Positions 18,303 through 49,129 of a DNA stretch of 64,000 bases are shown one piece after another. The stretch is from Syntrophales bacterium. GTDB taxonomy: Bacteria; Desulfobacterota; Syntrophia; Syntrophales; UBA2210. The notes under the pieces were generated by a model. That model saw only the letters and a list, made by a program, of their open reading frames with translations. It made no database searches and had not been told where the DNA came from. The position numbers and the translations under genes are program-made. Positions within the stretch are counted from its first letter, which is position 1. Each line of letters opens with the position of its first letter. The stretch is taken from NCBI GenBank assembly GCA_963666365.2, contig CAXXNF010000001.1, positions 352,001 to 416,000 of the forward strand. Direction: 5' to 3'.

Positions 18303-18335
18303 AGTCAATAGTCAACGCCTGACCCCATTTCCTTT
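18303..18335 (+). repeat. 33-bp end motif, copy 1
   Basis: AGTCAATAGTCAACGCCTGACCCCATTTCCTTT; 32/33 identical to 25678-25710. Confidence 0.95.
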
Positions 18336-18450
18336 CCCCAGGAGGTCCGTATTCCATGACCCGTAAAAAAGCAGATTTGATAAAGGCAGTGCAATCCCAG
18401 GTCGGTGTAACGAATGATAAGGCAAGTCCGATTGTTGGCGATTTTAACCC

Positions 18451-18484
18451 TTGACAATGGTACCAATATTGATACTGTATAGTC
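18451..18484 (+). promoter_or_regulatory. hicAB promoter/operator, probably leaderless
   Basis: TTGACA at 18451, imperfect palindrome GTACCAATATTGATAC, ATG at 18485 with no RBS. Confidence 0.55.
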
Positions 18485-18745
18485 ATGACAAAAACTGATG
18501 ACCTGCTATTGATACTGAAGCGTAATCCAGAGGATGTCCGGTTTTCGGATTTGTGCAGAATATGTGATCACTATTTCGGCGAACCACGTCAGCAAAAAAG
18601 CAGTCATCGAATTTATAAAACGCCTTGGCAAGGAGACCCAAGGATTAATATCCAGAATCACAAAGGCAAGGCCAAGGCATATCAAGTCAAGCAGGTGCTT
18701 TTGGCTATTGAAAAATTGGAGGTAAGCCATGGCCACAAAAAATGA
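18485..18745 (+). CDS. hicA: HicA family toxin
   Basis: 86 aa basic protein, SSHRIYKTPWQGDPRINIQ, KAYQVKQV. Confidence 0.88.
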   Translation: MTKTDDLLLILKRNPEDVRFSDLCRICDHYFGEPRQQKSSHRIYKTPWQGDPRINIQNHKGKAKAYQVKQVLLAIEKLEVSHGHKK

Positions 18746-19058
18746 TAAATATACGTACCGGGTGACCTGGTCTGAAGATGATACTGAATATGTGGGACTG
18801 TGTGCTGAATTTCCCAGCTTAAGTTGGCTGGCCGATACGCCGGAAAAGGCTCTGAAAGGGATCCGAAACCTTGTAGCGGAAGTGCTATTTGACATGGGCA
18901 AAACCGATGAGCCTATCCCCGAACCAATCGCAAGTAAACACTTCAGCGGAAAATTCATGGTCCGGGTCCCTCCAGAGGTACATAGAAAATTGGCCTTACA
19001 AGCTGCTGAGTCCGGCGTAAGCCTTAATCGTATTGCCAGTTCCAAATTGAGCCAGTAA
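18729..19058 (+). CDS. hicB: HicB family antitoxin
   Basis: YTYRVTWSEDD..YVGLCAEFPSLSW, C-terminal RHH SGKFMVRVPPEVHRKL; overlaps hicA. Confidence 0.9.
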   Translation: MATKNDKYTYRVTWSEDDTEYVGLCAEFPSLSWLADTPEKALKGIRNLVAEVLFDMGKTDEPIPEPIASKHFSGKFMVRVPPEVHRKLALQAAESGVSLNRIASSKLSQ

Positions 19059-19074
19059 ATAGATCTGTAAATAC

Positions 19075-19171
19075 GGGGACACCATATCTATTTATTGATA
19101 TCCTTCGGTTTTCTTCCTGTCTTCTTCGGCTTTAGGAGTCGATCCAGGAAGTTTTTCAGAGCTTCGATAAA
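19075..19171 (-). pseudogene. 3' remnant of a RAYT-like Y1 transposase with its terminal motif
   Basis: Minus strand FIEALKNFLDRLLKPKKTGRKPKDINK* followed by ATATGGTGTCCCC; resembles recalled C-termini of this family. Confidence 0.55.
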
Positions 19172-47354: not shown

Positions 47355-47381
47355 GGTAATTCCAGGTAATTCCGTAATTCC

Positions 47382-47405
47382 GGGGACAGTATACATAATT
47401 ATTGA
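47382..47405 (+). repeat. Solo GGGGAC-type end motif
   Basis: GGGGACAGTATACATAATTATTGA; 19/24 identical to 19075-19098. Confidence 0.7.
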
Positions 47406-47490
47406 CAGTAAGAATAGAAAACTGATTCAGGTCGCATCATGTGAAGTAATTGCACATACATATAGCATACATACATATGCATATGTGCAT

Positions 47491-48432
47491 ATGGGGTCAG
47501 GTCTTGAAATATCAGTTTATTTATGATAACAGGGACACCAAATAAACGATCAAGAGGCAATCATGTCCAGACCTCTGAGGATAGAATATCCCGATGCGGT
47601 ATATCATGTGACATCGAGAGGGAATGCGAGGAGCGACATCTTTCATTCCGCTTCCGACCGGGAAACTTTTTTAAAGATTTTATCCGGCGTTGTGCAACGA
47701 TTCAACTGGCTTTGCCACGCCTATTGCCTGATGGATAATCACTACCATCTCCTGATTGAGACACCGGACGGGAATCTGTCAAAGGGAATGCGGCACCTCA
47801 ATGGCGTCTACACGCAGAAATATAATTGGCTGCATCAAAAAACGGGGCATGTCTTTCAAGGACGCTATAAGGCGATCCTGGTGGAAAAAGACAGCTATCT
47901 GCTCGAACTGTGTCGATATGTTGTTTTAAACCCGGTTCGGGCAGGGATGACGGAGAAACCGGAACAATGGATATGGAGCAGCTATCGTTTTACCGTCGGG
48001 ATGAAAAAACCGCCGGAATATTTGACGATAGATTGGATACTGGGATTGTTCCATAGCAATAAGTCGGAGGCTCAGAAGCACTATCGGCGATTCGTCAGAT
48101 CAGGAATTGGGCTTAAATCCATCTGGGAGGAGCTCCATGGCCAGATTCTTTTAGGAAAAGAGGCATTTATAGATTCGCACAGCAATCTATTGCATGACAC
48201 ACAACCGGTTAAAGAAATTCCCAGAATTCAAAGATACTTAAACAGACCAAAACTATCAAACCTGTTTTCAAAAGCAATGGATAAAACGGACAGGAATAAG
48301 CAAATCCACCGAGCGCACATCCAACATGGTTATACGCTGAAAGAGATCGCCGATCATCTGGGAATTCATTACACAACGGCAAGCAAGATCATTAAAGTCG
48401 AAGAAAGGTGATATTTCAAGACCTGACCCCAT
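47491..48432 (+). mobile_element. RAYT-like Y1 transposase element with perfect 24-bp inverted ends
   Basis: ATGGGGTCAGGTCTTGAAATATCA at 47491-47514 and its exact reverse complement at 48409-48432. Confidence 0.88.
47563..48411 (+). CDS. REP-associated tyrosine transposase-like protein (Y1 HUH) with C-terminal HTH
   Basis: MSRPLRIEYP..YHVTSRGN, LMDNHYHLL (HUH), FQGRYKA, RYVVLNPVRAG, TLKEIADHLGIHYTT. Confidence 0.92.
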   Translation: MSRPLRIEYPDAVYHVTSRGNARSDIFHSASDRETFLKILSGVVQRFNWLCHAYCLMDNHYHLLIETPDGNLSKGMRHLNGVYTQKYNWLHQKTGHVFQGRYKAILVEKDSYLLELCRYVVLNPVRAGMTEKPEQWIWSSYRFTVGMKKPPEYLTIDWILGLFHSNKSEAQKHYRRFVRSGIGLKSIWEELHGQILLGKEAFIDSHSNLLHDTQPVKEIPRIQRYLNRPKLSNLFSKAMDKTDRNKQIHRAHIQHGYTLKEIADHLGIHYTTASKIIKVEER

Positions 48433-48442
48433 TCACCTGCAT

Positions 48443-49129
48443 TCACCTGTGCTCCTCCACCCATTCCGCCCAGCCGGACGGCACTTTCTGAAAGTGCATG
48501 TAATCTACAGTCCCCTCAGTCCACTCGCCTCCCCATTCCCATCCCAATTGCTTGAAAACCTGCACTACGGGAGAATCCGCGGTCAGGGTTCCCGGCACGG
48601 AAGGGCTGTACACCGCCTGTGGAGGCAGAATCAGATCGCCGCGCATATAGGGATTCTGACGGGGATTGATGTCCACCGCCATCCCCAGGGCGTGCAGTGA
48701 CAATTTTCGAGCGCCCACGATGGGACGCCAGACATACCCCGAGGTATTATTGGTGTCGGGGGAAAGGCCATAGGGCCCCTTGCGCTGAATTAGGGGATGG
48801 GCAATGGGCAGGACCGATTCCACAGGGAAACGGGTTTTCAGGATGACGTCGAAGACCTGACGAATGTCCGACAGGAGCGCTTCATGCACCACGATCTGTC
48901 CCTGATGCAGGCACCCATCGTATCCGTAATACCGCACGTCCGCCAGGGCAAGTTTTTTCTGAATGCCGGGTACGACATCCGGCGGCTGATTCGAGAACAC
49001 CGCCTCATCCGGGGTAAGGCGGCTGTCTACTGTAACCTCACCTCCGCATGCATACCCACCCTGCAGCATAAACAGCGCCGCCACCCATACGACAATGTTC
49101 CCTAGTGCCTTCACAGCGTTCACAGGCAT
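48443..49129 (-). CDS. M15 family D-Ala-D-Ala metallopeptidase
   Basis: SLHALGMAVDINP and DYMHFQ zinc-binding motifs; signal peptide. Confidence 0.88.
   Translation of the reverse strand: MPVNAVKALGNIVVWVAALFMLQGGYACGGEVTVDSRLTPDEAVFSNQPPDVVPGIQKKLALADVRYYGYDGCLHQGQIVVHEALLSDIRQVFDVILKTRFPVESVLPIAHPLIQRKGPYGLSPDTNNTSGYVWRPIVGARKLSLHALGMAVDINPRQNPYMRGDLILPPQAVYSPSVPGTLTADSPVVQVFKQLGWEWGGEWTEGTVDYMHFQKVPSGWAEWVEEHR

Follow-up and report, generated by a model that had tools for sequence, protein, structure and literature searches.

The stretch of DNA analyzed here, a window of 64,000 nt from a Syntrophales bacterium (bases 352001-416000 of contig 1 in a 4.0-Mb genome of two contigs), carries an intact Y1 transposase gene and, scattered over the tens of kilobases beside it, GGGG-capped sequences that resemble element ends and lie near a toxin-antitoxin (TA) operon and an Rhs locus. 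The locus thus raises the question of whether the transposase and the scattered ends belong together. A first-pass annotation had proposed that they do, as a platform for capturing and shuffling TA and polymorphic-toxin cassettes. Our analysis leads to a different answer: the span is very probably composed of one intact TIRtron, i.e., a transposase gene of the type termed TIRYT between its own terminal inverted repeats (TIRs), and the debris of four sister families within accessory DNA, and does not form one coordinated system.

The intact unit and its class

The intact unit is 942 bp long and has perfect ends: its inverted repeats, ATGGGGTCAGGTCTTGAAATATCA, extend over 24 nt and are 100% complementary. 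The GGGGWSAS motif takes the form GGGGTCAG in these a-type repeats (at 47493 and 48430). The protein encoded between them matches the Pfam family Y1_Tnp (E = 9e-13), confirming the earlier description of an intact Y1 transposase gene bounded by ends at 47491 and 48432.

Several lines of evidence place this protein among the REP-associated tyrosine transposases (RAYTs), named after repetitive extragenic palindromes (REPs), and their relatives. It contains the motifs N59-H60-Y61-H62 and R118-Y119-V-V-L-N123-P124; the HUH histidines, R118, Y119, N123, and P124 are invariant among 33 aligned homologues. Its score against the NCBIfam model REP_Tyr_transpos (REP-associated tyrosine transposase) is 78.2 bits compared to a cut-off of 80. 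A weak HTH_23 match at residues 252-278 (E = 1.2e-4; 22.2 bits, under its cut-off of 24.6) coincides with three terminal helices at 241-281 in the AlphaFold model of the protein (mean pLDDT of 85.7), consistent with a C-terminal helix-turn-helix (HTH). The top fold match of this model in the PDB is 4ER8_A (E = 5.9e-7; target-normalised TM of 0.74), the Escherichia coli RAYT (TnpA-REP) bound to a REP hairpin; the transposases of ISDra2 and IS608 rank after it.

Such units have been described before. Di Nocera, De Gregorio, and Rocco (2013; PMC3733652) define TIRYTs as RAYT-like genes flanked by TIRs, the whole unit being the TIRtron, and report that the repeats share the motif GGGGWSAS, are moderately abundant as singles, dimers, and clusters, and accompany several distinct TIRYT genes per genome, each with its own repeat. 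Quentin, Siguier, Chandler, and Fichant (2018; PMC6006769), who quote the consensus as GGGG[AT][CG]A[CG], place most TIRYTs in TnpA-Y1 subclass 2.1 (median of 238 aa), characterized by the HuH motif NHVH or NH[YF]H and a tyrosine motif Y...NP; their subgroup 2.1.2 has a C-terminal Bac_DnaA_C, HTH_23, or HTH_28 domain. They state that REP-like sequences were not found for subclass 2.1. Subclass 2.1 corresponds to RAYT Group 1 of Bertels et al. (2017; PMC5581495), which is the largest and most insertion sequence (IS)-like group of RAYTs. In the literature searched, TIRYT as a name was found only in the 2013 and 2018 papers.

Judged by its sequence, the intact unit is a member of this already described class, namely a TIRtron, probably of TnpA-Y1 subclass 2.1.2 and Bertels group 1, where the assignment to 2.1.2 is based on motifs, length, and domain order. 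It shares with published TIRtrons a RAYT-like HUH/Y1 protein that is longer than RAYTs and has a predicted C-terminal HTH, TIRs that form no hairpin, and a GGGGWSAS start; nothing defining distinguishes it from them. The published tyrosine motif of TnpA-Y1 2.1.2 (YIELNP or Y[IV]HLNP) is matched here only as Y-V-x-L-N-P. Four features go beyond the TIRYT description: a conserved core, GGGTCAGGTCT; a predicted -35 box in the left repeat; stutters outside the termini; and, for a sister family termed b, the position of repeats beside TA and Rhs genes.

Other HUH/Y1 systems differ from the unit. IS200/IS605 elements (IS608, ISDra2) share the HUH/Y1 core and presumably its single-strand chemistry, but they carry identically oriented subterminal hairpins at their two ends, lack inverted termini, and have a Y...Q motif and about 150 aa, whereas the unit in the window has inverted termini, Y...NP, and 282 aa. 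REPtrons (a RAYT or TnpA-REP gene with its REPs or REPINs; structure 4ER8) are alike in fold, in the inverted repeat copies that bracket the gene, and in dispersed inverted doublets, but the present unit lacks the GT[AG]G foot and the single-arm hairpin, has an extra predicted HTH, and occurs with fewer copies. REPtron systems were reportedly set out by Nunvar in 2010, by Bertels and Rainey in 2011, and by Ton-Hoang in 2012. A single a-type arm folds at -0.6 kcal/mol, no better than 57 of 200 shuffles. The observation of the first-pass annotation that these ends resemble neither the hairpins of IS200/IS605 nor GTAG-type REPs therefore stands.

To place the unit in a wider context, we scanned one genome per species for relatives of the window protein. 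At least 606 candidate stretches were found and at least 587 confirmed; the best 80 of these, 53-72% identical to the window protein, were kept, and their hosts include Nitrospirota, Thermodesulfobacteriota, Beta- and Gammaproteobacteria, candidate phyla, and others. The core GGTCA[AG][AG]TCT lies 5' of the start codon in 67 of 77 evaluable homologous loci, at a median of 45 nt from the ATG, and recurs in inverted form just past the stop codon in 58 of 76; it is present on both sides of the gene in 50 loci. Elsewhere in the same loci, there are 18 hits per 338,546 strand positions. Protein clade and core co-occur across phyla, while the 12 nt distal to the core differ by lineage. In 51 of the 69 core-bearing loci, a TTG and a TAnnnT box separated by 16-18 nt form a layout that begins within the left repeat and ends at a median of 6 nt 5' of the ATG. 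This arrangement suggests that, in these homologues, a near-leaderless transcript starts from a promoter in the left repeat.

The outer flanks of the homologous termini are also unusual. A partial GGGTC occurs within 51 nt outside 42 of 156 termini, compared to 11 of 448 control windows, and exact tandem duplications of 6-16 nt adjoin 32 of 156 termini versus 19 of 448 controls. In loci between L013 and L092 (e.g., L013, L022, L055, and L082), stutters outside the GGGG tips consist of a few flank bases followed by GGGGTCA, repeated two to six times; GGGGTCA is the usual ending of the stutter unit. The stutters are a possible footprint of the nick site, with a break just after GGGGTCA. The window has stutters as well (47360-47381 and 48433-48452), namely three copies of GTAATTCC before 47382 and two of CAGGTGAAT after 48432.

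Origin of the scattered ends

The dispersed ends are not those of the window gene; they derive from four other TIRYT families, termed b, B, C, and E (Table 1). Pfam Y1_Tnp has 16 matches in the genome; 3-4 are short genes of the IS200 type, and about 11 are long and of the TIRYT type, either genes or fragments. The long paralogues have the inverted flanks AAAAGGGGACAGATTTATTTATT, AATATGGGGACACCATACCTATTT (family B), CTTAATTCCGGGGACAGTATACTT (family C), TTCCGGGGACACCTTACTTA, and GGGACACTTCCCTA (family E), and GGGGWSAS-type tips of the form GGGGACAC or GGGGACAG are seen in B, C, and E. By contrast, the a-type repeat has two copies in the genome, both at its own gene, in addition to a doubtful shortened match at 61425-61444, and the a family forms no doublet in the genome. 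The idea of one system of related ends is thus not borne out. The GGGGACA-type ends alone fall to three families (B, C, and E), each with its own gene.

Table 1. Features of the window discussed in the text, with the genome-wide arm census of the four sister families (mismatch limits: E, up to 3; C, up to 2; B, up to 2; b, up to 5).
Feature	Position in window	Strand	Remarks
Left a-type TIR	47491..47514	+	Starts ATGGGGTCAGGTCTTGA; perfect pair with 48409-48432
TIRYT gene	47563..48411	+	282 aa; Y1/HUH core at about residues 1-140 and predicted C-terminal HTH
Right a-type TIR	48409..48432	-	Overlaps stop codon of the TIRYT gene
Solo b arm, GGGGTCAGGCGTTGACTATTGACT	18303..18326	-	GGGG tip toward hicA, 159 nt away; Rhs fragment 18007-18180 on inner side
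hicA-like gene and hicB, operon	18485..19058	+	Between two outward-facing termini, outside both elements
B-family right-end remnant	19075..19180	+	TIR GGGGACACCATATCTATTT and last 30 codons of a TIRYT gene on the minus strand (19091-19180)
b doublet, REPIN-like	25626..25701		Inverted 25-nt arms, 80% complementary; 26-nt spacer
Degenerate b arm	27170..27202	-	Directly 5' of orphan Rhs fragment 1; 70% identity
E-family solo arm, probable (GGGGACACTTCCC...)	36695..36713	-	3 mismatches to the E arm; 13-nt exact match
C-family TIRtron left-end fragment, truncated	47376..47414	+	TIR and 14 nt; 39 nt in all
Family E, genome census			74 arms, 47 loci
Family C, genome census			49 arms, 33 loci
Family B, genome census			6 arms, 6 loci
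Family b, genome census			6 arms, 5 loci

These families differ in age and organization. Most E arms form inverted pairs 90-115 nt apart, and C arms form pairs 44-75 nt apart; both families have the architecture of REPINs, with dispersed gene-less doublets. In this respect, E and C behave unlike subclass 2.1 as reported by Quentin et al. (2018). The four b doublets of the genome are only 69-90% identical to each other, and the b family is therefore old. An intact b enzyme exists in another genus, where a 337-aa gene with Y1_Tnp and Bac_DnaA_C matches lies between b arms (the Bac_DnaA_C match of this b-family relative, E = 1.7e-5, is under its cut-off); it is 38% identical to the window protein. 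What is left of the b gene in the window's genome is an 83-codon stump, 73% identical to the b enzyme and 52% to the window protein.

Alignments identify the individual ends. The ends at 18303, 19075, and 47382 and a paired miniature element, all picked out by the first-pass annotation, are true repeat copies. The remnant at 19075-19180 matches residues 194-223 of the protein encoded at contig 2 1604464 (tblastn; 77% identity, E = 7e-10), and a blastn match of 85% identity extends over 110 nt. The fragment at 47376-47414 shares 95-97% identity with the ends found upstream of the four C-family TIRYT genes on contig 2 (1171-1180 kb). The b doublet is located between IS1634 and the last small open reading frame (ORF) in the array of Rhs orphans. 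In single-stranded form, it has a folding energy of -19.5 kcal/mol (z = -4.9); no stable fold was obtained for single arms of families a, b, B, or C. Two further ends had been regarded as weaker: the one at ~36713 is a plausible E arm, and the one at ~61445 is doubtful.

Could the motifs instead be chance matches to a short G-rich word? Bare GGGGWSAS is not enriched in the window (21 sites compared to 17.7 ± 4.3 expected), and the 648 GGGGACA sites of the genome have no conserved context. For lack of shared context and of enrichment of the cap, we rejected the notion that every GGGGACA site is an element end; the bare GGGG or GGGGACA words, on which the first-pass annotation had partly relied, do not serve as markers of ends. 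For the longer pattern GGGGTCRGNNNTTGA, however, there are six matches with at most one mismatch in the window, whereas 0.74 ± 0.88 are expected and none of 100 shuffles reaches six; one of the six, at 40093 inside a kinase gene, is probably a chance match. Together with the perfect 24-nt pair, the matches of 39-110 nt to family members, and the presence of the b arm in 16 of 339 genomes of the order (G000 included) as opposed to none for a reversed control pattern, these counts refute chance for the long repeats. It holds for isolated 7-8-mers, but as an account of the motifs in general it is scarcely credible.

A more substantive rival is that the repeats are purely regulatory, i.e., that they are operator or promoter sites for the HTH of a domesticated gene, with scattered arms as binding sites or decayed duplicates. 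The promoter layout in the left repeat of 51 of 69 loci would fit such a role, as would the single-copy state of the window gene and the report that Group 1 RAYTs mostly act like host genes (Bertels et al., 2017; PMC5581495). An inverted copy past the stop codon, as seen in 58 of 76 loci, is nevertheless needless for a promoter. Nor would regulation account for sister families with 49-74 dispersed arms, mostly doublets and in near-identical copies, or for multi-copy TIRYT genes such as the four at 1171-1180 kb of contig 2. The stutters at the tips suggest breakage and joining of DNA, and the HUH residues and tyrosine are invariant. We therefore consider a solely regulatory role very unlikely.

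Comparison with the nearest genome (G001; a different species of the same genus, about 71-75% identical) by tblastx shows that ends sit at synteny breaks, as for mobile DNA in a hot spot; the first-pass expectation on this point was correct. A 19.6-kb stretch of the window (17200-36742) is missing from G001, which has 457 nt in its place, including a GGGGACGGGTTCACATTAA inverted doublet. The extra DNA holds, in addition to the Rhs array, an Rhs fragment, the solo b arm, hicAB, the B remnant, a giant sulfatase-maturase-like ORF, IS1634, the b doublet, spy, and the E arm. The tip of the E arm lies 29 nt from the point where synteny resumes. We do not claim that the E arm and the repeat of G001 are orthologous, since spy is on different sides of the two. 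A further break in synteny, at 47336, precedes the C fragment and the TIRtron by 40 nt; at this place G001 has other genes and no repeat. A histidine kinase gene (38318-40543) is likewise missing from G001.

Two of the three kinds of junction to which the ends had been assigned withstand inspection: ends are present on both sides of hicAB and at the distal end of the Rhs array. The third does not, as no GGGG-type end was seen at either border of the duplicated spy segment (23689-23806 = 35998-36115). This duplication is a 118-nt direct repeat, 96% identical, of the region upstream of spy with its first codons, and it brackets IS1634 and the entire Rhs locus (12.3 kb). The main Rhs protein of that locus (29955-35723; 1922 aa) has SpvB, TcdB_toxin_midN, FG-GAP, and RHS repeat matches, and two orphan core or C-terminal fragments of Rhs lie at 26248-27243 and 27986-28549. 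Within the orphan array there is also a broken IS200-type Y1 gene (28822-29188) interrupted by one TGA and one TAG; the ORF at 28792-29139 matches Y1_Tnp with E = 6.9e-8. Elsewhere in the window, about 11-13 tandem copies of the 9-nt unit GTTTGGTCT occupy 41499-41633, at the 5' end of a radical SAM gene (40571-41599, minus strand).

The cluster at 1171-1180 kb of contig 2 consists of four near-identical C-family TIRYT genes, one of them truncated, each with C repeats; it adjoins a TA-rich stretch at about 1190-1220 kb (three HicA hits and Phd-like, PIN, and PIN_3 hits). A further candidate group of arms, the c-type ends beginning GGGGTCAGTCGTTGACGGCC, was rejected because they belong to a DDE insertion sequence (DUF772 and DDE_Tnp_1_6), whose inverted ends of 32 nt they form. 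The loci in question on contig 1 are 147794-149538, 122508-123678, 739451, 731239, and 46531. The outer 16 nt of its ends (GGGGTCAGNCGTTGAC) equal the b-family TIRYT repeat, and at 731239 a truncated end of the element is fused to the inner half of a b repeat, just 5' of the truncated TIRYT gene. The element may have borrowed these ends, may target them, or may have travelled within a doublet.

Toxin-antitoxin and Rhs neighbors and the cassette question

Both ends beside hicAB direct their GGGG tips at the operon: the b arm precedes it by 159 nt, and the B end follows it after 17 nt. The hicB product matches HicB with E = 3.7e-15, and the ORF upstream of it has a weak HicA_toxin match (E = 0.018). 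At the Rhs locus, three orphan core fragments are each preceded by a progressively more decayed b arm and then an A run; a copy near 28700, 5' of orphan Rhs 2, is more decayed than that of fragment 1. Across the genome, four of the five b sites adjoin a TA operon at a distance of 0-306 nt, each of a different family (RHH-ParE, hicAB, MazE-like/PIN, and MNT/HepT), and the fifth is the site adjoining the Rhs array.

We compared this proximity with that of other loci, scoring a locus as positive if a Pfam TA family lay within 1 kb and using one-sided Fisher tests. The neighbor scans excluded ORFs over 260-400 aa and under 55-60 aa, so that TA pairs without a Pfam family are missed. Random control sites were weighted to DNA free of ORFs of at least 150 aa, which over-samples TA loci and makes the control deliberately conservative; 4 of 26 such sites were positive, one of them being the b1 locus itself. 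In a sample of 25 loci from the other families (20 of C, 2 of B, and 3 of E), none was positive. When distances to 18 known TA hits were taken instead, none of the 47 E loci and one of the 33 C loci came within 1 kb of a hit. The difference between b and the other TIR families is significant (p = 1.8e-4). That b arms, unlike those of the other families, lie beside TA and orphan Rhs modules is a genuine feature of this genome.

Beyond the genome, TA adjacency does not exceed the control. Among 24 b loci examined elsewhere in the order, four have a clear TA neighbor (Phd-ParE, MazE-PemK, a PIN operon, and a ParE operon), which is no more than in the random control (p = 0.60) and borderline relative to the other families (p = 0.05). 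Of the remainder, one adjoins a Fic protein and another, in the sister species, is a truncated TIRYT between ORFs with RHS repeats. The enrichment beside TA and Rhs genes that the first-pass annotation had led us to look for is therefore present within the genome and, for TA operons, not above the random control outside it.

Three side observations concern the surroundings of the b sites. An integrase stub lies no more than about 1.5 kb from the b1 site, as do three tRNA genes; a search of three b loci against Rfam returned these three tRNA genes only. Two other multi-copy repeats lie near the b4 site. A 150-nt element with no Rfam family is found 5' of the MNT/HepT operon (L109:2904-3067; contig 2 2263303-2263466) and has 6, 7, and 10 copies in G005, G011, and G013, respectively (76-84% identity); it is also present in G001 and G002.

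These data bear directly on the proposal that one or more Y1 nucleases use GGGG arms to capture or shuffle TA and Rhs C-terminal toxin/immunity cassettes, with an arm and its cargo excised between direct arms. Beyond the b adjacency in the genome and the b arm 5' of all three orphan Rhs fragments, two other genera have a TA operon between direct arms: MazE-PemK between b arms in G018, and hicAB between B arms in G017, where the flanks are not conserved in sister genomes. An arm with its GGGG tip proximal comes 0-109 nt after the 3' end of the operon in five cases. A homologue of the G018 operon, 74-90% identical, occurs elsewhere in three sister genomes, as movement would predict, but there it has no b arms. 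The join in G018 is itself uncertain because a 100-N scaffold gap lies beside a 150-nt direct repeat containing the arm. Orientation is also inconsistent, with the arm upstream of the operon inverted at the window, L175, and L184, and many apparent solo arms elsewhere are merely the ends of whole or decayed TIRYT genes. Finally, the b nuclease is truncated in this genome, the window enzyme is of a separate clade whose repeats have another core, hicAB lies outside both termini that flank it, and no cargo was seen between inward-facing ends. On this evidence we regard the capture platform, the central claim of the first-pass annotation, as a minority possibility and improbable.

A related idea is that GGGG-tipped arms act as single-strand recombination sites and that a Y1 nuclease moves circles of arm plus cargo in an integron-like manner, with small TA operons and Rhs C-terminal toxin/immunity modules as the cassettes. 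Its footprint would be the b pattern: different TA operons at four of five sites, an arm 5' of every orphan Rhs fragment, and a TA operon between direct arms where sister genomes have an empty site. The resemblance to integrons (IntI and attC), by analogy only, lies in hairpin-forming imperfect palindromes beside small TA operons. There are no cassette arrays here, and no integron integrase was found in the genome (the best TIGR02249 score is 141 bits relative to a cut-off of 265). By inspection, the arms run 5' GTTGAC...GTCAAC 3', the mirror of the R''/R' boxes in the attC consensus. With no IntI and the wrong order of boxes in the arms, a true integron/attC reading was rejected, and the looser, integron-like version is improbable.

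We favor instead the view that the b arms are probably old survivors in accessory islets. Survivorship is preferred because b is old and its enzyme is dead in this genome, because the young families show no bias, and because b arms in genomes with live enzymes are not above the control. An insertion preference of b arms is a second possibility.

Several results nevertheless weigh against the interpretation of the span as one TIRtron amid family debris, or against parts of it. The b adjacency in this genome exceeds the random control as well (p = 0.0098), conservative though this control is. The arrangement in G018 matches what the cassette model predicts: the flanks of the MazE-PemK locus lie 16-72 nt apart in four of five sister genomes, i.e., the site is empty, and are on different contigs in the fifth. 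As for the intact unit, the window-type gene is single-copy in the genome with no dispersed cognate arms, and the unit may be domesticated or dead. The window copy also lacks the TTG...TAnnnT layout of its homologues, a consensus scan found no promoter there, and its TIR lies 72 nt from the ATG, as opposed to about 46 nt in the homologues. Sequence-only searches of the PDB, queried either with the protein alone or with a profile of 33 sequences, returned nothing at E ≤ 0.01, and no biochemical study of any TIRYT was found in the literature searched.

Proposed activity and wider significance

The fold, the invariant catalytic residues, and the precedent of RAYTs and REPINs together point to a nicking and copying mechanism. 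In this scheme, the enzyme would recognize its ends through the HUH core and/or the HTH and would nick one strand near the GGGG tip; that the stutters usually end in GGGGTCA points to a break just after this sequence. In this way it may copy in trans either the whole unit or arms and doublets that lack a gene, a role also proposed for RAYTs with respect to REPINs. Given that the left repeat appears to carry the -35 box of a near-leaderless transcript in most homologues, binding to the ends would also autoregulate the gene. The a-type unit, which is single-copy and has no dispersed arms, may itself be immobile. The b arms, for their part, may persist in accessory islets where deletions are disfavored, possibly since an addiction module would be lost with them.

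With at least 587 confirmed relatives, TIRYTs rank with the most frequent transposase-like genes of anaerobes and uncultured phyla. The present locus offers a clean test substrate, a unit of 942 bp with a nick site tentatively predicted after GGGGTCA, and its genome allows young families (E and C) to be compared with a dead one (b). For annotation, GGGG-tipped repeats should be assigned to their own TIRYT family before a system is inferred from them. The persistence of a dead family beside addiction modules may mean that TA loci shield junk DNA from deletion or, less likely, that HUH enzymes move TA cassettes.

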